From NCBI RefSeq assembly GCF_054482525.1, contig NZ_CM137006.1: 64,000 bases of DNA. One strand, given 5' to 3'. Of the stretch, positions 2,208 to 53,624 are shown piece after piece. The translations under genes were made by a program, and so were the position numbers. The notes beneath the pieces are model-generated. The model was not told where the DNA came from, made no database searches, and saw only the letters and a program-made list of their open reading frames with translations. Position 1 is the stretch's first letter. The number at the start of each line of letters is the position of its first letter.

Positions 2208-3326
2208 ATGCATAACCAGGCTCCAATTCAACGTAGAAAATCAACACGTATTTACGTTGGGAATGTGCCGATTGGCGATGGTGCTCCCATCGCCGTACAG
2301 TCCATGACCAATACGCGCACGACAGACGTCGAAGCAACGGTCAATCAAATCAAGGCGTTGGAACGTGTTGGCGCTGATATCGTCCGTGTCTCCGTACCGA
2401 CGATGGACGCGGCAGAAGCGTTCAAACTCATCAAACAGCAGGTTAACGTGCCGCTGGTGGCTGACATCCATTTCGACTATCGCATTGCGCTGAAAGTAGC
2501 GGAATACGGCGTCGATTGTCTGCGTATTAACCCTGGCAATATCGGTAATGAAGAGCGTATTCGCATGGTGGTTGACTGTGCGCGCGATAAAAACATTCCG
2601 ATCCGTATTGGCGTTAACGCCGGATCGCTGGAAAAAGATCTGCAAGAAAAGTATGGCGAACCGACGCCGCAGGCATTGCTGGAATCCGCCATGCGCCATG
2701 TTGATCATCTTGATCGCCTGAACTTCGATCAGTTCAAAGTCAGCGTGAAAGCGTCAGACGTCTTCCTCGCTGTTGAGTCTTATCGTTTGCTGGCAAAACA
2801 GATCGATCAGCCGCTGCATCTGGGGATCACCGAAGCGGGTGGCGCGCGCAGCGGGGCGGTTAAATCCGCCATTGGTTTAGGTCTGCTGCTGTCTGAAGGC
2901 ATCGGCGACACGCTGCGCGTATCGCTGGCGGCCGATCCGGTTGAAGAGATCAAAGTCGGTTTCGATATTTTGAAATCGCTGCGTATCCGTTCGCGAGGGA
3001 TCAACTTCATCGCCTGCCCGACCTGTTCGCGTCAGGAATTTGATGTTATCGGTACGGTTAACGCGCTGGAGCAACGCCTGGAAGATATCATCACTCCGAT
3101 GGACGTTTCGATTATCGGCTGCGTGGTGAATGGCCCAGGTGAGGCGCTGGTTTCTACACTCGGCGTCACCGGCGGCAACAAGAAAAGCGGCCTCTATGAA
3201 GATGGCGTGCGCAAAGACCGTCTGGACAACAACGATATGATCGACCAGCTGGAAGCACGCATTCGTGCGAAAGCCAGTCAGCTGGACGAAGCGCGTCGAA
3301 TTGACGTTCAGCAGGTTGAAAAATAA
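2208..3326 (+). CDS. ispG: 4-hydroxy-3-methylbut-2-enyl diphosphate synthase IspG
   Basis: 372 aa ORF; recalled IspG/GcpE sequence incl. C-terminal CPTC...C cluster motif. Confidence 0.95.
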
Positions 3327-3436
3327 TAACGTGATGGGAAGCGCCTCGCTTCCCGTGTATGATTGAACCCGCATGGCTCCCGAAACATTGAGGGAAGCGT
3401 TGAGGGTTCATTTTTATATTCAGAAAGAGAATAAAC

Positions 3437-11475: not shown

Positions 11476-13053
11476 ATGACGGAAAACATTCATAAGCATC
11501 GCATCCTCATTCTGGACTTCGGTTCTCAGTACACTCAACTGGTTGCGCGCCGCGTGCGTGAACTGGGTGTTTACTGCGAACTGTGGGCGTGGGATGTGAC
11601 AGAAGCACAAATTCGTGACTTCAACCCAAGCGGCATTATTCTTTCCGGCGGCCCGGAAAGCACCACCGAAGAAAACAGCCCGCGCGCGCCGCAGTATGTC
11701 TTTGAAGCAGGCGTACCGGTATTCGGCGTTTGCTATGGCATGCAGACCATGGCAATGCAGTTGGGCGGTCACGTTGAAGCCTCTAACGAACGTGAATTTG
11801 GCTACGCGCAGGTTGAAGTCGTAAACGACAGCGCACTGGTTCGCGGTATCGAAGATGCGCTGACCGCAGACGGTAAACCGCTGCTCGATGTCTGGATGAG
11901 CCACGGCGATAAAGTTACCGCTATCCCGTCCGACTTCGTCACCGTAGCCAGCACCGAAAGCTGCCCGTTTGCCATTATGGCTAACGAAGAAAAACGCTTC
12001 TATGGCGTACAGTTCCACCCGGAAGTGACTCACACCCGCCAGGGTATGCGCATGCTGGAGCGTTTTGTGCGTGATATCTGCCAGTGTGAAGCCCTGTGGA
12101 CGCCAGCGAAAATTATCGACGATGCTGTAGCTCGCATCCGCGAGCAGGTAGGCGACGATAAAGTCATCCTCGGCCTCTCTGGTGGTGTGGATTCCTCCGT
12201 AACCGCAATGCTGCTGCACCGCGCTATCGGTAAAAACCTGACTTGCGTATTCGTCGACAACGGCCTGCTGCGTCTCAACGAAGCAGAGCAGGTTCTGGAT
12301 ATGTTTGGCGATCACTTTGGTCTGAACATTGTTCACGTTCCGGCAGAAGCTCGCTTCCTGTCAGCGTTGGCCGGCGAAAACGATCCGGAAGCAAAACGTA
12401 AAATCATCGGGCGCGTTTTCGTTGAAGTATTCGATGAAGAAGCACTGAAACTGGAAGACGTGAAGTGGCTGGCGCAGGGCACTATCTACCCTGACGTTAT
12501 TGAATCTGCCGCATCTGCAACCGGTAAAGCACACGTCATCAAATCTCACCACAACGTGGGCGGCCTGCCGAAAGAGATGAAGATGGGGCTGGTTGAACCG
12601 CTGAAAGAGCTGTTCAAAGACGAAGTGCGTAAGATTGGTCTGGAGCTGGGCCTGCCGTACGACATGCTGTACCGTCACCCGTTCCCGGGACCAGGCCTCG
12701 GCGTTCGTGTACTGGGCGAAGTGAAGAAAGAGTACTGCGACCTGCTGCGCCGTGCTGACGCCATCTTCATTGAAGAACTGCGTAAAGCGGACCTGTACGA
12801 CAAAGTCAGCCAGGCATTCACCGTCTTCCTGCCGGTACGTTCCGTTGGCGTAATGGGCGATGGTCGTAAGTATGACTGGGTTGTCTCTCTGCGTGCTGTC
12901 GAAACCATCGACTTTATGACCGCACACTGGGCGCACCTGCCGTATGACTTCCTCGGTCGCGTTTCCAACCGCATTATCAATGAAGTGAACGGTATTTCCC
13001 GCGTGGTGTATGACATCAGCGGCAAGCCACCAGCGACTATTGAGTGGGAATGA
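11476..13053 (+). CDS. guaA: GMP synthase (glutamine-hydrolysing)
   Basis: 525 aa ORF; GATase domain plus SGGVDSS PP-loop; recalled GuaA. Confidence 0.95.
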
Positions 13054-13099
13054 TTAACAGCTAACTCATAGCAACTCATTTCTATTCAGATATTAACTC

Positions 13100-18051: not shown

Positions 18052-18272
18052 ATCTCGTTATCGTTGGCCACATCGCGAGCTTCTTTGCTGACGAAAGCCC
18101 ACTTAATACCTTCCTGTAAGGTGCGGAACTTCCAGCTCATGAATCCGCATGCAGTAACGCAGTACCAACCGTTGATGATTTTCCACTGCATAACTTGTTA
18201 CCTCGGTTTGTTACCGTTGAGGTAATGATTATGCGTATTTGGTTTGGTGTCAATAGATATGAGTTAAAAAAA

Positions 18273-18287
18273 TTACCCACAAGGTAA
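18273..18287. promoter_or_regulatory. TTACC-N5-GGTAA motif at the early-left promoter position (OL-like)
   Basis: TTACCcacaaGGTAA between repressor 3' end and start of leftward operon. Confidence 0.5.
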
Positions 18288-18344: not shown

Positions 18345-18929
18345 TTATTGTTTGCTTTTTTCGTTCTGGTTGATGACAAATTCAATGTAACTTTCGATCT
18401 TTGCTTTCTCGGTTTCGGGTAACAATGCGTAGCGCGAGCGGTCATAGTTGATAGTCGCAGGGTCGTGCGGGTGAATCAGTAATTCATAGCCGTGACGCCC
18501 GAATGCGGATGCAACATTCTCCAGGGTGGAAATGGAAACGCTGACCTCATTGTTTAACAGGCGGCTGATTGTCACCTGGGCGACGCCGGATGCGCGGTGA
18601 AGTTTTCCCTGTGTTGAAAGGTCGCGGCTTTCGCTCATCCAGCGTTCCAGGTTGTGAGCCGCCAGCTGACCAATGTCGCTTGGGCCGACAGGCTGAAAAC
18701 CTTCCTGAGAAAGCGAGCGATCGATATCAAGCCAGTTACGGGGTTTATTGGCGGCAGCTTCAATTTTTCGCGCAACCTGGTCGCCGATAACCTTCTTACC
18801 AAGAGCCCAGCGGTTTACCAGATTTGCCTGAGTTCCAAGTTTTTCTGCCATCCGCGTCTGAACACCATTGAATTCACGGTCGATCAAGTCGTTGAGATTT
18901 TGCCTGCGGACGTCCTGGATACTTTTCAT
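18345..18929 (-). CDS. Prophage repressor, two HTH domains, no LexA-like peptidase domain
   Basis: 194 aa; two HTH-like segments; divergent from Cro-like gene; no GxSM/K autocleavage motif seen. Confidence 0.6.
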   Translation of the reverse strand: MKSIQDVRRQNLNDLIDREFNGVQTRMAEKLGTQANLVNRWALGKKVIGDQVARKIEAAANKPRNWLDIDRSLSQEGFQPVGPSDIGQLAAHNLERWMSESRDLSTQGKLHRASGVAQVTISRLLNNEVSVSISTLENVASAFGRHGYELLIHPHDPATINYDRSRYALLPETEKAKIESYIEFVINQNEKSKQ

Positions 18930-18984: not shown

Positions 18985-19047
18985 TTACCCAACAGGTAAA
19001 TGCACCCCATAGGTAACTATCCTTGATTTTTGTTACCTTATGGGTGA
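18985..19047. promoter_or_regulatory. Operator region between repressor and cro-like gene: TTACCcaacaGGTAA (18985-18999) and TTACCttatgGGTgA (19033-19047)
   Basis: Two palindromic sites in the divergent promoter region. Confidence 0.55.
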
Positions 19048-19462: not shown

Positions 19463-19675
19463 TTGAAGATAGTAACCAGAATGGAGGCCGCAAAAGCCGG
19501 GTTAAATCGCTATTTCACAGGAAAGCGGTGCCGTCACGGCCATCTCTCTGAAAGGTATGTTCTGAACGGAACATGTGTTGAATGTGCAATGAATAGCGCC
19601 AACCGCCATCGTAATGAATTTGCTTGTGCACTAAAGAGTGCAAGAGGGGAAACCTATGGCAAGCAGCTGGATTAA
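19463..19675 (+). CDS. Small Cys/His-rich protein (cII position)
   Basis: 70 aa, TTG start with AAGGGG RBS; C..H..C..C pattern. Confidence 0.4.
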   Translation: MKIVTRMEAAKAGLNRYFTGKRCRHGHLSERYVLNGTCVECAMNSANRHRNEFACALKSARGETYGKQLD

Positions 19676-20486
19676 GGTTGAAGTTATCACTCCTGATAAA
19701 CCTGAAATTTTTCAGATAGCAGAAATTCTGGGTATTGATCCAGATGCTGTTCTTGGAAAGCTGGTTCGTATATGGGCATGGGCTGACCAGCAAACAATAG
19801 ACGGTAACGCTGGCAGCGTTACAAAAGGAGTACTTGATAGACTCGCTTTTATTACAGGATTTGCTGACGCCCTCATTAGCGTCGGATGGCTTGCTTATCA
19901 TGACGGCAAACTAATTCTTCCAAACTTTGAGCGACACAATGGAGAATCATCGAAAAAACGTGCACTTACGAATAGAAGAGTGGCAGAGCATCGAAAACGA
20001 GTAACGCAAAAAGTAACGCCAACAGCGTTACAAAAGGAGTTACCAGAGGAAGAGGAAGAGGAAGATATATATAAAACCCCACACATAGCGCACGTGCGCG
20101 AGGGTGCTCCGACCAGTGAAGCGAACAGTACGCCGTTGCAGGTGGCAGAACCTGAATTTCTGGATGGCCTGAGTGAACCCATCGGGAAATTTCCGATGAC
20201 AGATGGCTGGCTACCGTCGCCAGATTTTCGGCGGCGTGCTGCGCTGTGGGGAACGGCCCTGCCGGAACCGGAATTTACACCTGCTGAACTTGCTGCATTC
20301 CGGGATTACTGGATGGCTGAGGGCAAAGTGTTCACGCAGGTTCAGTGGGAACAAAAATTCGCCAGGCACGTAAATCATATCAGGGGAAAATCAAAAAATG
20401 CCGGGAAAAGCGATGAGCTTGACTGGAATAACACTGACTGGATAGAAGGGGTGTGGGATGAAATCAACTCCAGAACTTCTCAATGA
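19638..20486 (+). CDS. Replication initiation protein (O-like / DnaT-domain-like)
   Basis: 282 aa; acidic linker; immediately upstream of and overlapping lambda-P-like gene. Confidence 0.5.
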   Translation: MQEGKPMASSWIKVEVITPDKPEIFQIAEILGIDPDAVLGKLVRIWAWADQQTIDGNAGSVTKGVLDRLAFITGFADALISVGWLAYHDGKLILPNFERHNGESSKKRALTNRRVAEHRKRVTQKVTPTALQKELPEEEEEEDIYKTPHIAHVREGAPTSEANSTPLQVAEPEFLDGLSEPIGKFPMTDGWLPSPDFRRRAALWGTALPEPEFTPAELAAFRDYWMAEGKVFTQVQWEQKFARHVNHIRGKSKNAGKSDELDWNNTDWIEGVWDEINSRTSQ

Positions 20487-21271: not shown

Positions 21272-21286
21272 TTACCTGTTGGGTAA
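21272..21286. promoter_or_regulatory. TTACC-N5-GGTAA motif
   Basis: TTACCtgttgGGTAA downstream of P-like gene. Confidence 0.45.
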
Positions 21287-21333
21287 TAAAATGTTCTAAT
21301 CTCTATTGATTTCATGTCTTATGTGGTTTTTAA

Positions 21334-21348
21334 TTACCTAAGGGGTAA
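21334..21348. promoter_or_regulatory. TTACC-N5-GGTAA motif immediately upstream of DUF1064 gene
   Basis: TTACCtaaggGGTAA ending 4 nt before ATG at 21352. Confidence 0.45.
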
Positions 21349-28596: not shown

Positions 28597-28794
28597 GATC
28601 TCACCTTAAAAAAATGCCCGGCGAACCGGGCGAACTGGAAGCAATGAGTTATGCCTTCCGTGGCTGTACGGGTTTACAGCATGAAGTCATCGCAATGGCG
28701 TCCTGCTGTAAAAAGGGCGGTGATAGTCCTTCAAGGGAAACCATCACCGCCAAGCACCTGGAACTTCTGGCATCACGGTCCTTAGGCGTGATTC

Positions 28795-28871
28795 TGGCGC
28801 GGCATGCAGGATTCGAACCTGCGACCAACCGCTTAGAAGGCGGTTGCTCTGTCCAACTGAGCTAATGCCAC
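28795..28871 (-). tRNA. tRNA-Arg (anticodon UCU), phage-encoded
   Basis: Hand-folded cloverleaf: 7-bp acceptor stem, D-arm GCTC/GAGC, anticodon loop CTTCTAA, T-arm GCAGG-TTCGAAT-CCTGC, 3' CCA encoded. Confidence 0.85.
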
Positions 28872-45769: not shown

Positions 45770-46032
45770 CATGTCACAGGCCGCTTTCGCGGCCTTGTTT
45801 TTAACGAATGCCACCGCCGCCCGGACGGGAATCCGCAGAACGCCCACCGCAGCGGGAGCCGTCAGCGGCAGTATCGCTGTCGTGCTGACAACGACCGGCA
45901 AAGGCCTGAGTTGAAGCTACCAGAGACAACAAAACGAACAGTGCAGCAAATGCTTTTTTCATTGTGAAATTTCCATCTATAAGCCACCTCAATGTGGCGT
46001 CAATGAGTGTAGCACTGACTTTTGTTTCGTCC

Positions 46033-46055
46033 ACAAAAAATCCCGCAGCGCGGGC
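46033..46055 (-). terminator. Rho-independent terminator of the minus-strand cargo operon
   Basis: Minus strand reads GCCCGC-GCT-GCGGG-A-TTTTTT directly after toxin stop codon. Confidence 0.7.
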
Positions 46056-46601
46056 TTATTCCTTCCATTTATCAGAAAAAAGATCTTCTTCTAAAGGCAT
46101 TGGTTCTGTTTTTGTTTTCTCAAAGAATTGATAACTGATAGTGATTGCTGCCTCTTTAAACTCTTCTTGCTCAGTTATGTTGTGGGCATCTGCGTCAACA
46201 AAAAACATAACCAGCGCATCACGATTGTGATTTACCGAATAAACTAAAAAGCAATTACTTGTTGGTATGCATTTTACTTGCACAGACGCTATTTTTTTCC
46301 ATGCATCCCAAGATGATTTTTTACCAGTGTGTTTTTTATCACTATCTTCTGGAATATAGTCTTGGTTATCGACATGAGTATGCCTGACATTTAGTTTAAG
46401 CATTTCTGTCGGACGAGCAAATGCAGCATCTTTACCAAGAGATGGATGGTATCCCGTTTTCCAATACTGGGTAAAGGCATCAGATACTTTCTTCAGCTCA
46501 AGATCAGATGCACAAAGGGCCGAGAAATTTTGCGTATGCAATACTCGACCCTTATATCTGACAATTTGATTTTTATCATTCTGCGACGCAGACGAACTCA
46601 T
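46056..46601 (-). CDS. YafO-like toxin candidate with N-terminal extension
   Basis: 181 aa from ATG with AAGGA RBS; C-terminal part resembles recalled YafO core. Confidence 0.4.
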   Translation of the reverse strand: MSSSASQNDKNQIVRYKGRVLHTQNFSALCASDLELKKVSDAFTQYWKTGYHPSLGKDAAFARPTEMLKLNVRHTHVDNQDYIPEDSDKKHTGKKSSWDAWKKIASVQVKCIPTSNCFLVYSVNHNRDALVMFFVDADAHNITEQEEFKEAAITISYQFFEKTKTEPMPLEEDLFSDKWKE

Positions 46602-46755
46602 AATTTTCCTTATTGTTACGAGAATCAAAGAAAGCGCGGGATACGCGACTTGCGTGATCTTTTGTCATAGTAACTTTTACGCACTCTACGCTTCCATTGA
46701 AAGAACGTCTTGCGGCAGCTTGCGCTCTACGCATCTGCAATTTTTCGTTTCGCAT
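46576..46755 (-). CDS. Small basic protein, candidate antitoxin/regulator
   Basis: 59 aa hand-translated ORF (below ORF-track cutoff) with GAGGT RBS; 3' end overlaps toxin start by 26 nt. Confidence 0.3.
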   Translation of the reverse strand: MRNEKLQMRRAQAAARRSFNGSVECVKVTMTKDHASRVSRAFFDSRNNKENYEFVCVAE

Positions 46756-46815
46756 GACATTACCTCATATCTCATAAGTTCATTACACGGATTAATAAAA
46801 ATGAAACCAATCCGT

Positions 46816-46830
46816 TTACCCTTGAGGTAA
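46816..46830. promoter_or_regulatory. TTACC-N5-GGTAA motif upstream of small ORF/toxin pair
   Basis: TTACCcttgaGGTAA. Confidence 0.45.
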
Positions 46831-46902
46831 TAGTACGCTATTCACCCACAGTCTGCAATCTGTACAGAATTATTTAAAGGCACATCCCTGTGCCGCCGCC
46901 CG

Positions 46903-47598
46903 TCAGAAGAACCCTGCCTTGTCGTTGATGTACTCCGCGTGCGTCTGGATATCACGCAGGCATTTGCTCACACCGACGATGTAGCAGAACATGGTGGTCA
47001 GCTCCGCCGCCGCGCCCGATACGTCGTGCCCGTCGTCCTGTAACTGGTTCAGCAGATTCATCAGCAGTGAGTTCTCCGTCAGGCCGAGAACACCAGACGG
47101 CGAATGAATCAGGCTGCGGTAGCCGGGCTTCAGTGGGGCACTGTAGGTTTTGTTCTCTATCTTCATCGCCTGCATCACTGCTGATGCTGTGGCGTTGGCT
47201 ACCTGGTCGGCAACCATCTTTATGCGCTCTTCCTGCGGGAGCGAGTTTTTAATGTAACTTCCGGTGCGGCGGATCTGAGGAAGAACCTCACCTGTAACCC
47301 ATTTACGAAAGCGGTATGGGATAGTGCCTGGTGTCACTGCGTCGCGGCAGCGGAGGATCAGTGTGTAGAGGCCTGACTCGGAGATGATGATCGATTCTTG
47401 CTCACCGCCAGGGGTGTCGGTTGAAGCGACGCCCTTCTCATCATCATCAAGTTTTCGAACAGCATCTCGATGGTTTGCTATGCCTATAGCCCGACAAACA
47501 TCTGAAGCGATAAACCATGGCTCACCATTAATGACGATTACTCGTATATCGGCTTGGGATTCGAAAGAAAAAATGGACGTGCTTTTTGTAGCTGTCAT
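46903..47598 (-). CDS. BRO-N domain antirepressor-like protein
   Basis: 231 aa; N-terminal Bro-N-like pattern (INGEPWFIASDVCRAIG); C-terminal domain paralogous to ORF 47914-48171. Confidence 0.6.
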   Translation of the reverse strand: MTATKSTSIFSFESQADIRVIVINGEPWFIASDVCRAIGIANHRDAVRKLDDDEKGVASTDTPGGEQESIIISESGLYTLILRCRDAVTPGTIPYRFRKWVTGEVLPQIRRTGSYIKNSLPQEERIKMVADQVANATASAVMQAMKIENKTYSAPLKPGYRSLIHSPSGVLGLTENSLLMNLLNQLQDDGHDVSGAAAELTTMFCYIVGVSKCLRDIQTHAEYINDKAGFF

Positions 47599-47867
47599 AG
47601 TGGTTACCTTTTAGTCTGGTTAATCACCACTACCGACGCCAATCGGTTGGTGGTGAGCTGTGCAGGGTTGGCGTAACCGGCTAAAAGGACCCGGCGCACC
47701 TTTCGGTGCCCCCACACAGCCCACCATAATACGAATGTGGCCGTGCTATACGCATAAAAAAACCGCTTGCGCGGTGAATGCGCCTTTTAGTAATCCGGGA
47801 CGCCAATCCCGGCACTGGATTTTGCCAGTGCCCGATTACTATGGCACAAGAGGAGTGCGATGTAAAT

Positions 47868-47882
47868 TTACCGCAAAGGTAA
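47868..47882. promoter_or_regulatory. TTACC-N5-GGTAA motif upstream of BRO-N gene
   Basis: TTACCgcaaaGGTAA. Confidence 0.45.
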
Positions 47883-47913
47883 ATATAAGCACTTCATTTG
47901 GTAATTGCAAACC

Positions 47914-48171
47914 TTATCTGGTTTGTTTTCGTAATTGTTCGGCACAATAGTCGAGATGTGTTTGCAGATCCTGCATAGACATCTGTGAGCTGGTGACGTA
48001 GTTAATCAGTGCAGTCAGTTCGGCAAGTGGGCCATCGACATTAAATCCATCCTTATCTAGATCCCGGAGTAATTTCATCAAGTGCGATCCCTCCACCAGT
48101 GACTTGACGCCTCCCGGCGTGTGAATCCTTTCGGTAAATCCGTCTTCCAGTGGATAGTGATACTGCTGCAT
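47914..48171 (-). CDS. Small LexA-controlled protein, Tum-like antirepressor candidate
   Basis: 85 aa from ATG with GGAG RBS; ~45% identity by eye to C-terminal 60 aa of adjacent BRO-N protein; LexA box upstream. Confidence 0.5.
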   Translation of the reverse strand: MQQYHYPLEDGFTERIHTPGGVKSLVEGSHLMKLLRDLDKDGFNVDGPLAELTALINYVTSSQMSMQDLQTHLDYCAEQLRKQTR

Positions 48172-48191
48172 CTTAATCTTCTCCATGCAAT

Positions 48192-48211
48192 AACTGTATA
48201 TTTATACAGTA
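48192..48211. promoter_or_regulatory. LexA (SOS) box AACTGTATATTTATACAGTA
   Basis: CTGT-N8-ACAG with AT-rich spacer, near-consensus; upstream of minus-strand gene 47914-48171. Confidence 0.75.
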
Positions 48212-48248
48212 TCAAATAATTTGTTTGCTATCCAGCACGTTTTGCAAA

Positions 48249-48263
48249 TTACCTAAAAGGTAA
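48249..48263. promoter_or_regulatory. TTACC-N5-GGTAA motif in divergent region between cargo operon and tailspike
   Basis: TTACCtaaaaGGTAA. Confidence 0.45.
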
Positions 48264-48367: not shown

Positions 48368-51142
48368 ATGACGGTCTCAACCGAAGTTGACCACAACGAA
48401 TACACAGGTAACGGCGTTACGACATCATTTCCGTATACCTTCCGCATTTTCAAAAAAACAGACCTGGTTGTTCAGGTGTCTGACCTGAACGGTAACGTAA
48501 CAGAATTGGTTCTGGATACCGGTTATACGGTAACTGGGGCGGGCACTTATAGTGGCGGTTCTGTTGTTCTTCCGTCGCCGCTTGCTGCTGGCTGGAAAAT
48601 CACGATAGAGCGTGTGCTTGATGTGGTGCAGGAGACTGATCTTCGCAATCAGGGAAAATTTTTCCCCGAAGTTCATGAGGATGCATTTGACTACCTGACG
48701 ATGCTGATCCAGCGATGTTTTGGGTGGTTCAGACGTGCATTGATGAAACCATCTTTGCTTGCAAAATATTACGATGCAAAGCAAAACAGAATTTCTAACC
48801 TTGCAGATCCATCACTTGAGCAGGATGCTGTAAATAATCGCTCAATGCGTAATTATGTCGATGCTGCAATCGCCGGGGTTGTTGGTGGTTTTGGTTGGTT
48901 TATTCAGTATGGTTTTGGGGCAGTATATCGAACGTTCCAGGATAAGATGCGGGATATCGTCAATGTTCGCGATTTTGGTGCAAAAGGGGATGGCATTACT
49001 GACGATACAGACGCAATAACAAATGCCATCATTTACTGCGCATCTAACGGAAAACGCCTGAAGTGGGATTCTGGTGTGTATTTGATTAGCCGCATAAAAT
49101 GCGGCGGGGATAATTATAACTATGACTGGGTAGCTGATGGCAAGGTTGTCTTAAAGTCAACCGCAAAAGAGCCTCTTGGTCCAAACTGGATTGATGATTA
49201 TTTCATAAGACTCGAAGGTGGAGATGCCACGCCAATTGACTATAATTCAACAATAAATCCTGGTGACACATCAATATCAATTAACTCAGCATATTCTGTT
49301 GATGCAGGCGATATAATTATGATTCATGGTAATCGCTTAATTCAGACAGATAATAGAGGACAGGCTTGTGAAGGTGAAATGCATGTTGTTACTGCTTTTG
49401 ATAATGCAACAAAAAAAGCGGAGATATCAGGTGCATTTTATTTTTTCTACTCTGCGAGCAATGATTACTCAACGACCGTAACAGCATCTGTATCCGGAGG
49501 TGAATTCTCATTTGGTAATGATGCAACATTAACAAAACAATACAATCAGGTAAAAGTAACAGGTGTCACCGGAGCTAACGCCGGAATATCAAGATACATA
49601 ACTCATTGGGATTACGACACTAAAACAGCAAAATTTGAATATGCTCAGGGACCATTCCCGTTTAAACCATCTGTTGGAGACGTGTTTAAAATCACAAGAA
49701 AGGCAAATATATATAAAAGAAAACCATGCTACGGCAGAATTGTCGGTGATTTCAATTTTGAAAGACCTGTCACGCAGAACGCATCTCCTGGTGATTTGGG
49801 GTTCCGTGGTCTTGTGATAGATGGCGCTGTTGATATGCATATAGAAGGAATAAAACTAATCGGCTTTTCAGAAACTGGAATTTTTCTTGAGTCATGCTAC
49901 AGAACGAAAATAATAGAGCCATATATTGAATACTCAAACCGTGCATATGATTTAACAAACGGCACTGGTTATGGTGTTGAAATATACAATAGCAGCTATT
50001 GCACAGTCGTGGATATGATAGCATTTGCTTGCAGGAGGGGGCTTGATGTAAGCGGGACTCAAATGGTATCACTGTATAATAACATTATAAATCCAACGAT
50101 GATGGGTGGTGGAACTGCATATGATGGAGTTAAATTTTTCCCTGATGGCGATACAAGAAATTCATGTTGCGGTGGACACGGCCCATCATACGAAACAACT
50201 TTTACAGGCGGCAATTCAGTCAATTTGTATTATGCTGGTGTAATACGCGGATTAAATGAAGTGTATGATGGAATGAACGCCAGGGGATTTAGCGGACCGG
50301 CTCCTTTTTTTGTAAGATATAGTGGTGGTGGGTTCACGATTCAGAACTGTAATTATATTGATGGTTTTACTGAGATGTCTTTGCCATACAACTTGAGGTA
50401 CAAACCTGTGAATGCAACTCAACGTAATCACAGACCTTTTGTTTTTATTGAAACAACTCTGGCACAGACAGACAGAAACTCTTACTATAAAGAACTTCCT
50501 GTTGTTATTAAGAATAATACCGCAAGGACTGTTCTCAAGGGCTTTTTACGTTTTGAGGTTAATGATGGCCTCACCCCTCTAATCCAAAATATTTATTTTG
50601 GTGGTAATTTATGCATGGCGAACCCAGAAACATCAGACTCTGTATCAGGGCAAACAGAGGCAGTAATGGTTTATTCATCAGTTCCTGGTGCAATAATTGT
50701 TCGAAATTTCCATGATCTTGGCGGTAACAGAATTGTTCCTGTTGGAGCAGGATACAGATACTGCGGTATGTTCAACACGCCAGATGGAATAGCAGGAACA
50801 ATAGTTCAACCAGACGGAAAATATCTAATAACACTTGAAGCCAACAAATCTACAAGTATCCTTGTTGGTGGATATGTCCCATGTGTTCGCCTTGATATGC
50901 ACGACATACTTGATATTCATGGGGTAATTGCAGTTGGTGTTCTTATTCATCGTGGTGAGGCAATTGATTTTTCTCCTTTAAAAGAAATTAATAAGCAAAA
51001 TGTTGTATTGAAAACCGGAGTTCTTTCAGATAATGATGGTGATGAAAATAACTTAAATATTTCGTTTGACTTTGCAACCATATATTTAAGCAACAAGATG
51101 CCAAATAAGATTCAACTATCTATTGAAGTATCAGGAGTGTAA
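48368..51142 (+). CDS. Tailspike / receptor-binding protein
   Basis: 924 aa; N-terminal virion-attachment-like region, large repetitive beta-rich body; position typical. Confidence 0.6.
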   Translation: MTVSTEVDHNEYTGNGVTTSFPYTFRIFKKTDLVVQVSDLNGNVTELVLDTGYTVTGAGTYSGGSVVLPSPLAAGWKITIERVLDVVQETDLRNQGKFFPEVHEDAFDYLTMLIQRCFGWFRRALMKPSLLAKYYDAKQNRISNLADPSLEQDAVNNRSMRNYVDAAIAGVVGGFGWFIQYGFGAVYRTFQDKMRDIVNVRDFGAKGDGITDDTDAITNAIIYCASNGKRLKWDSGVYLISRIKCGGDNYNYDWVADGKVVLKSTAKEPLGPNWIDDYFIRLEGGDATPIDYNSTINPGDTSISINSAYSVDAGDIIMIHGNRLIQTDNRGQACEGEMHVVTAFDNATKKAEISGAFYFFYSASNDYSTTVTASVSGGEFSFGNDATLTKQYNQVKVTGVTGANAGISRYITHWDYDTKTAKFEYAQGPFPFKPSVGDVFKITRKANIYKRKPCYGRIVGDFNFERPVTQNASPGDLGFRGLVIDGAVDMHIEGIKLIGFSETGIFLESCYRTKIIEPYIEYSNRAYDLTNGTGYGVEIYNSSYCTVVDMIAFACRRGLDVSGTQMVSLYNNIINPTMMGGGTAYDGVKFFPDGDTRNSCCGGHGPSYETTFTGGNSVNLYYAGVIRGLNEVYDGMNARGFSGPAPFFVRYSGGGFTIQNCNYIDGFTEMSLPYNLRYKPVNATQRNHRPFVFIETTLAQTDRNSYYKELPVVIKNNTARTVLKGFLRFEVNDGLTPLIQNIYFGGNLCMANPETSDSVSGQTEAVMVYSSVPGAIIVRNFHDLGGNRIVPVGAGYRYCGMFNTPDGIAGTIVQPDGKYLITLEANKSTSILVGGYVPCVRLDMHDILDIHGVIAVGVLIHRGEAIDFSPLKEINKQNVVLKTGVLSDNDGDENNLNISFDFATIYLSNKMPNKIQLSIEVSGV

Positions 51143-53496: not shown

Positions 53497-53624
53497 TTTC
53501 CGGTGACGGTATATAAAACGGTACGGCGAAAATCAGGTTGCAGAAAGTTGTTATCAGTCAATTGGTTATGTGTGTCGTAAATAATTGAGTGGGAATAATT
53601 TGACCCTGCACTATGAATGAACAA

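Follow-up and report, generated by a model that had tools for sequence, protein, structure and literature searches.

A probable SPC32H-type LexA-Ant-Rep switch beside a putatively RNA-controlled BRO-N gene in a phiV10-like prophage of Escherichia coli

SPC32H-type prophages of Salmonella are induced by a LexA-controlled antirepressor, Ant (PMC7380047, citing Kim and Ryu), and the tetrameric Ant binds two dimers of the repressor Rep and breaks up the Rep tetramer (PMC9638917). In phage P1, Ant synthesis is repressed by the c4 RNA (PMC8546580; PMC12197685). The antirepressor-like gene anrP of Gifsy-1 lies downstream of isrK, which controls its translation and whose read-through feeds it, and a stable processed RNA, STnc1160, is complementary to IsrK (PMC4825925). 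Here we compare these systems with a minus-strand locus of an E. coli prophage, contained in a 64,000-nt stretch of contig NZ_CM137006.1 (assembly GCF_054482525.1; the whole stretch is called the window below). The locus holds a gene for an 85-amino-acid (aa) protein, preceded by a LexA (SOS) box, and further downstream a gene for a 231-aa protein with a BRO-N domain. We consider it highly probable that this arrangement works as a LexA-Ant-Rep switch of the SPC32H type, to which the BRO-N protein adds a second antirepressor under separate RNA control.

For SPC32H, Rep is reportedly left uncleaved during the SOS response and is said to be inactivated by Ant, LexA reportedly represses the ant promoter, and the variant SPC32N, said to form clear plaques, reportedly has its point mutation at the LexA site; all of this is ascribed to Kim and Ryu in 2013 (J Virol 87:11775) and to Kim et al. 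in 2016 (PNAS). The Protein Data Bank (PDB) entries for this Rep/Ant switch are 5D50 and 5D4Z. The corresponding features of the window are as follows.

48192-48211: LexA (SOS) box, reading TACTGTATAAATATACAGTT on the ant strand
48206-48234, minus strand: probable ant promoter, TGGATA (48234-48229), 17-nt spacer, TACTGT (48211-48206)
47914-48171, minus strand: ant, encoding an 85-aa SPC32H-type antirepressor, with the Shine-Dalgarno sequence GGAG at 48184-48181
18345-18929, minus strand: rep, encoding a 194-aa prophage repressor with two helix-turn-helix (HTH)-type regions

The 20-mer AACTGTATATTTATACAGTA at 48192-48211 agrees with the E. coli LexA consensus TACTGTATATATATACAGTA at 18 of 20 positions, with both the CTGT and the ACAG arm intact. 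It is the only site within three mismatches of the consensus in the whole window, and none of 100 shuffled sequences gave any. The first-pass annotation had described a near-perfect SOS box at this place, just upstream of an 85-aa minus-strand gene, and both statements hold, the box ending 20 nt before the ATG at 48171. The loose pattern CTGT-N8-ACAG occurs three times in the window against 0.8 expected; the remaining copies, at 28664 and 33206, are poor 20-mers within structural genes and were treated as chance. Across phages of E. coli, Salmonella and Enterobacter the position of the box is constant while the neighbouring bases diverge. It is kept in phiV10 and in Enterobacter phage Tyrion, and two Klebsiella relatives have it with slight degeneracy in one arm. 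The genome records of SPC32H and SPC32N differ at exactly two bases, one of which (ACAG>AAAG on the ant strand) lies within a box that aligns column for column with that of the window.

The protein behind the box was compared with the known antirepressor. The mechanical open reading frame (ORF) at 47914-48186 (minus strand) has 90 aa, and the ATG at 48171 gives 85 aa; we retain the shorter length, since GGAG stands before this ATG and the starts annotated for SPC32H ant and phiV10 p24 align with it. Residues 7-89 of the 90-aa ORF match PDB 5D50 chain E ('Anti-repressor protein') with E=1.3e-46 (phmmer), and its identity to the ant product annotated in SPC32H (KC911856; tblastn) is 86.7%; ant is annotated in SPC32N too. 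In SPC32H the gene occupies the same place, divergent from the tailspike gene and beside the injection-protein genes. By homology, then, the 85-aa protein is a member of the SPC32H-type antirepressor family. Its brevity, its RefSeq name ('hypothetical protein'), its PHROG label (phrog_450, 'unknown function') and the lack of an NCBIfam model or a precomputed Pfam hit could be taken to mean that the ORF is a decaying, nonfunctional fragment left by duplication of the 3' end of the BRO-N gene. That reading is next to impossible: standalone Ant is conserved over its full length at 59-99% identity in 35 phage records, among them SPC32H and epsilon15, which have no BRO-N copy (phiV10-like and some Klebsiella phages have both copies); the Shine-Dalgarno sequence and start codon are intact; and an ortholog was solved as a crystal complex with Rep (5D50). 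Conservation pattern and structure together refute it.

The presumed target of Ant also belongs to the SPC32H family. Rep matches PDB 5D50 chain A ('Repressor') with E=3.5e-42, is homologous to SPC32H Rep, and is identical to phiV10 p40 at 193 of 194 residues. Pfam recognises HTH_3 at residues 106-147 and, weakly, a second HTH at 24-67. Neither a Peptidase_S24 nor a LexA-type domain was found in it: Pfam gave no S24 hit even at E<=10, and NCBIfam gave only weak HTH-family hits. The earlier description of a repressor with two HTH regions and no recognisable autocleavage motifs is thus borne out. When this prophage is compared with SPC32H, identity is 87% for Ant and 43% for Rep, so that the antirepressor is far more conserved than its target; this suggests that the surface of Rep seen by Ant is a conserved one, and that Ant could work across immunity types.

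That the box is a chance palindrome or a relic, with induction proceeding through cleavage of Rep or through the RNA-controlled BRO-N protein alone, is very improbable. The part given to LexA here does lean on the SPC32H analogy, and lysogens of phage vB_EcoP_ZX5 (ZX5 below), whose sequence is 98% identical to the window over the whole region, release phage spontaneously at about 10^7 plaque-forming units (PFU)/mL (PMC9782041). Such a reading would nevertheless have to explain the empty shuffles, a position conserved across phages of three host genera amid diverging flanks, the placing of one of just two SPC32H/SPC32N differences within the box, and a Rep without an S24 domain.

The LexA-Ant-Rep reading would place the operator directly on the promoter. 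The hexamers TGGATA and TACTGT are kept in the window, phiV10, SPC32H and Tyrion, and the -10 of the proposed ant promoter (TACTGT) would coincide with the left arm of the LexA box, a layout also found in coliphage 186, where the annotated -10 of p95, TACTGT, lies inside the LexA box. An alternative -35, TTGCAA, beside the palindrome was dropped, as it has no conserved -10.

In coliphage 186, the LexA-repressed promoter p95 drives Tum, an antirepressor of CI, and the resemblance goes further than the LexA box over the antirepressor promoter -10: there, too, the repressor is bound and not cleaved. The proteins themselves are unlike. Tum has 146 aa, is annotated as DinI-like and acts on another repressor family, and a single BLASTP comparison of Ant with Tum found no detectable similarity (16.5 bits, E=0.059), so homology was rejected. 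As judged from their sequences, the two systems share regulatory logic and not ancestry. The first-pass annotation had proposed SOS induction through a LexA-controlled, Tum-like antirepressor in place of repressor cleavage; the LexA-Ant-Rep part of that proposal is upheld by orthology to SPC32H, and 'Tum-like' stands by analogy only.

By orthology to SPC32H, the switch would run as follows. In the lysogen, Rep, with two HTH-type domains and no protease domain, would keep the phage silent, and host LexA would occupy the SOS box overlapping the ant promoter. DNA damage would activate RecA, LexA would cleave itself, and ant would be transcribed. The 85-aa Ant would then bind Rep and remove it from DNA, and the prophage would be induced without cleavage of Rep.

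The likely operators of Rep have the form TTACC-N5-GGTAA, of which the window holds 10 exact copies against 0.08 expected, all within the prophage. These sites are found in the rep/cro-like intergenic region, in 62-bp pairs, at the isrK -35, about 90 nt upstream of ant and downstream of the BRO-N gene, and the positions are kept in phiV10 and SPC32H. Three places bear on the switch.

48249-48263: TTACC-N5-GGTAA palindrome in the ant/tailspike intergenic region, exact copy, putative Rep/Cro operator
47868-47882: TTACC-N5-GGTAA palindrome abutting the -35 of the isrK promoter
18985-19047: putative rep/cro-like intergenic operators, TTACCCAACAGGTAA (18985-18999), a degenerate copy 17 bp downstream, and TTACCTTATGGGTGA (19033-19047)

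The first of these lies about 90 nt upstream of ant likewise in phiV10, SPC32H, Tyrion and Klebsiella phages; the arrangement palindrome-A-TTTACA at the second is kept in four phages; and in SPC32H the same rep/cro-like intergenic place has two exact copies, 17 bp apart. We infer from this distribution that the palindromes are operators of Rep and/or a Cro-like protein, and by analogy it suggests a multi-operator Rep regulon akin to that of P1 C1. If the sites are operators, the RNA-controlled BRO-N cassette would be under Rep as well, much as the immI promoter of P1 is under C1. The pairs, exactly 62 bp apart from start to start, flank promoter-like sequences, and their spacing is the same in phiV10 and SPC32H (window 18211-18287 and 21272-21348; phiV10 31953/32015 and 35070/35132; SPC32H 33604/33666 and 35972/36034). 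Upstream of the early-left genes, for instance, TTGACA stands between the copies at 18273 and 18211.

The second component of the locus is the BRO-N protein.

46903-47598, minus strand: gene for a 231-aa fusion of a Bro-N domain (aa 17-107) with an Ant-like domain (aa 150-226)

Pfam places Bro-N (PF02498) at residues 17-107 with E=5.5e-21. The C-terminal 77 residues (150-226) match 5D50_E, the SPC32H Ant, with E=1.9e-13, and the 85-aa Ant itself aligns with residues 150-223 at 31/74 identities (42%; BLASTP, E=2e-15), close to the 45% identity over about 60 residues first estimated. The suggestion that one antirepressor domain exists here in two formats, standalone and fused to BRO-N, is supported: 5D50_E matches both proteins, and in an alignment of standalone with fused copies 19 columns are invariant. 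A word-indexed protein search with Ant found close standalone homologs only and no fusions; a profile built from standalone and fused copies reached the fusions and retrieved just 70 clusters (E<=1e-3) among 1.84 billion representatives. Most of these clusters are standalone proteins of about 85-95 aa, and about ten are proteins of 150-319 aa with a C-terminal Ant domain behind N-terminal parts of BRO-N-type, Rha-like or other 'anti-repressor' PHROG families. On this distribution, the Ant fold is a portable module that occurs at the C-terminus of several 'anti-repressor' architectures, and the Ant family is small and enterobacterial.

Exchange between the two formats may have occurred. The standalone Ant of Klebsiella phages (2495-2752; 2495-2746) carries the motif DGHDVSGAAAEL, which is that of the fused BRO-N copies (window 46906-47166), where the standalone Ant of E. 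coli and Salmonella has DGFNVDGPLAEL; this hints at recombination or gene conversion between Ant paralogs. In phiV10, p22/p23 (19551-20230), the annotation divides the BRO-N gene into a 194-aa product and a further ORF of 29 aa, and the Ant-like C-terminal domain, intact (231 aa) in the window and ZX5, seems there to be broken by a frameshift or by an error of sequencing.

The fusion is identical at 230 of 231 residues to ORF4 of ZX5, annotated 'anti-repressor'. Overexpression of glutathione S-transferase (GST)-tagged ORF4 during infection lowered the lysogen titre from 10^9 to 10^6 PFU/mL, about 1000-fold, and reduced rep transcripts by 75%; the same study is silent on the small Ant (annotated as hypothetical), on the LexA box, on SPC32H and on the RNAs (PMC9782041). 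These data are published, if crude, evidence that the BRO-N protein pushes this phage type toward lysis. A different role is unlikely, though it deserves some weight: the fusion might not be an antirepressor of this Rep at all, forming mixed oligomers that tune or poison Ant, or targeting the repressors of other resident prophages and so producing anti-immunity or cross-talk, with BRO-N binding DNA. The fused domain is just 42% identical to Ant, Ant is reported to be tetrameric (PMC9638917), trans-acting antirepressors are known in Salmonella prophages (PMC3121763), and the occurrence of the Ant-like domain behind several N-terminal modules (BRO-N, Rha-like) suggests a portable interaction module. 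What tells against such a role is that ORF4 moved a phage with the same Rep toward lysis and lowered its rep transcripts (ZX5 Rep is stated to be identical to that of phiV10; PMC9782041), and that the 19 columns are invariant between the two formats.

A second antirepressor thus remains the favoured role for the BRO-N protein, and its gene, as read from the sequence, lies outside the LexA unit: it has a promoter of its own and an isrK/C4 antisense-RNA control, which the first-pass annotation had missed.

47838-47866, minus strand: predicted promoter of isrK/C4/BRO-N, TTTACA, 17-nt spacer, CATAGT, with a predicted start at 47831
47756-47831, minus strand: isrK-like RNA (Rfam RF01394) with its own terminator (47762-47775 and a U run); sites a1 (47800-47806) and b1 (47783-47790) are complementary to C4
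47646-47731, minus strand: C4-type antisense RNA (Rfam RF01695, with its structure line); b' CCUUUUAG (47681-47688) in a hairpin loop, a' ACGCCAA (47668-47674) single-stranded
47607-47642, minus strand: C4 target sites in the BRO-N leader, a2 UUGGCGU (47636-47642) and b2 CUAAAAGG (47607-47614)

The isrK-like RNA reaches 77.9 bits (gathering score 50) and C4, with the full-length model, 79.2 bits (gathering score 45); the fold of 47590-47831 has z=-5.0. The start called by the promoter scan, 47831, is position 1 of the Rfam isrK model, and both the promoter and the isrK + C4 pair are kept in Tyrion and two Klebsiella phages. In C4, a' and b' are exact 7- and 8-nt complements of a2 and b2 in the leader and of a1 and b1 in isrK, and b2 covers the BRO-N Shine-Dalgarno sequence, 8-9 nt upstream of the ATG at 47598. 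Across the window, Tyrion, KpST11 and Kp4865 there is three-way covariation of a'/a1/a2 and of b'/b1/b2, with a1 and a2 changing along with a' as follows.

Window: a' ACGCCAA
Tyrion: a' AGACCAA
KpST11: a' ACGCCAA
Kp4865: a' GTCTCAA

The exceptions in b' are one mismatch in b1 of Tyrion and one G-U pair in b2 of KpST11. This covariation is strong comparative evidence that the C4 pairing is functional. Transcription from the BRO-N promoter would thus yield the isrK-like leader, then C4, then the BRO-N message; a' and b' of C4 would pair with the BRO-N leader and Shine-Dalgarno sequence and block translation, and the duplicate sites a1/b1 of isrK RNA could compete for C4.

Three observations concern the boundaries of this cassette. 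A scan for promoters and terminators found no terminator between ant and isrK, and SOS-induced ant transcripts may therefore read through into isrK/C4/BRO-N. Another promoter-like site, TTGCAA-17-TATATT at 47882-47911 (minus strand), follows the ant stop directly, its -10 adjoining the palindrome at 47868-47882. Over the C4 stretch (ZX5 record 1727-1840; window 47604-47727, minus strand), the ZX5 record has an 'ash family protein', probably an artefact of the RNA gene.

The closest described counterparts of the cassette are immI of P1/P7 (c4, icd, ant1/2) and the isrK-orf45(STnc1160)-anrP region of Gifsy-1. The a and b sites of the P1/P7 pairing are reportedly those detailed by Citron and Schuster in 1990. 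As in immI, an antirepressor gene shares its transcript and orientation with a C4-family RNA that precedes it; this RNA pairs, through two short single-stranded elements, with the leader and ribosome-binding site downstream, and duplicate sites lie upstream; specificity varies among related phages; and the repressor has many dispersed (here putative) operators, one of them at the cassette promoter. Unlike immI, the cassette has no icd, its antirepressor is a fusion of BRO-N with an SPC32H Ant domain, and its carrier is an integrated podovirus and not a plasmid prophage. As in Gifsy-1, the order is an isrK-family RNA that has its own terminator, a C4-like RNA region and then an antirepressor-like gene, whose translation, by analogy, would be RNA-controlled and fed by read-through of the isrK terminator. 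In contrast to Gifsy-1, no antQ lies nearby, and the equivalent of orf45 has 35 codons here and 15 in relatives, which makes coupling doubtful. A conserved coding role of the orf45 or icd kind over C4 was rejected on these lengths. Against SPC32H, finally, the likenesses are an orthologous ant at the same locus divergent from the tailspike gene, a LexA box aligned over the promoter, and a homologous two-domain Rep without a protease domain, in a phage of the same genus; the differences are a diverged Rep, an E. coli host, and, in SPC32H, a single Ant copy with no isrK/C4/BRO-N cassette.

Several points weigh against the combined LexA-Ant-Rep and BRO-N reading. What is proposed for LexA binding, for the start of ant transcription and for Ant-Rep binding is carried over from SPC32H, to whose Rep the present one is just 43% identical over its full length, and the consensus promoter scan called no ant promoter at its threshold. 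Contact between the fusion and Rep is putative, and the ZX5 effect came from GST-tagged overexpression during infection. For the RNA part, no icd-like gene was found between C4 and the BRO-N gene, the only candidate being the short upstream ORF overlapping C4, which varies in length between the window (35 codons) and Tyrion and Kp4865 (15), although its ATG is conserved. A more specific proposal is offered tentatively, at somewhat under even chances: that phiV10-type Uetakevirus prophages run a two-input circuit in which a free, LexA-controlled Ant and a c4-controlled BRO-N fusion with an IsrK decoy both act on the same Rep, and in which the differing pairing specificities form an RNA-defined layer of heteroimmunity or anti-immunity atop Rep.

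The locus is set in a complete prophage.

13039-53600: whole Uetakevirus (phiV10-like) prophage

It spans 40.5 kb and is collinear with Escherichia phage phiV10 at 94-98% identity (megablast). The attachment (att) core ATTGAGTGGGAATGATT is repeated at both ends (13039-13055 and 53584-53600) and is the same as that reported for ZX5, phiV10 and epsilon15 (PMC9782041). By these features the prophage is phiV10/epsilon15-like and is a member of the genus Uetakevirus. Read 5' to 3' on the minus strand, the locus runs from the palindrome 48263-48249 through the SOS box (48211-48192), GGAG and the 85-aa gene (48171-47914) to the palindrome 47882-47868, the promoter (47866-47838), the isrK-like RNA (47831-47756), C4 (47731-47646) and the BRO-N gene (47598-46903); its neighbours are the injection-protein genes on one side and the tailspike gene (48368-51142, plus strand) on the other. 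Downstream of the BRO-N gene, about 1.07 kb at 45823-46892 has no counterpart in phiV10. Two ORFs whose function is unknown lie in it on the minus strand, one at 46576-46755 (59 aa, phrog_6685) and one at 46056-46628 (about 190 aa, phrog_1651). Upstream of both stands a promoter-like TTGCAG-17-TACTAT, with a start region that overlaps the 46816-46830 palindrome, and the segment may be a Rep-controlled cargo (moron) cassette. Elsewhere, the prophage carries a tRNA-Arg(TCT) at 28795-28871 (minus strand), likewise annotated in SPC32H, and the host flank carries the small RNA sroE at 3326-3417 (plus strand; Rfam, 116.6 bits), which marks the host as E. coli or a near relation.

The mechanism has already been characterised in SPC32H, and the present locus is its member in an E. 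coli prophage. What it adds is one effector fold under two orthogonal controls, a c4-type pairing that covaries between phages, and a link to the ZX5 experiment; overall its use lies in synthesis and in corrected annotation, and it is no new kind of system. The practical gain is better annotation, because current resources hide the function of ant behind 'hypothetical' and 'unknown function' labels and offer no family model for it. There is also a modest gain in that SPC32H Ant, P1 c4 immunity and Gifsy-1 IsrK, which have been studied separately, are joined in one 1.4-kb locus. At least 80% of the module was found in 240 of 5426 complete E. coli genomes, and the SOS-Ant-Rep switch would account for the induction of this common E. 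coli prophage type without repressor cleavage.

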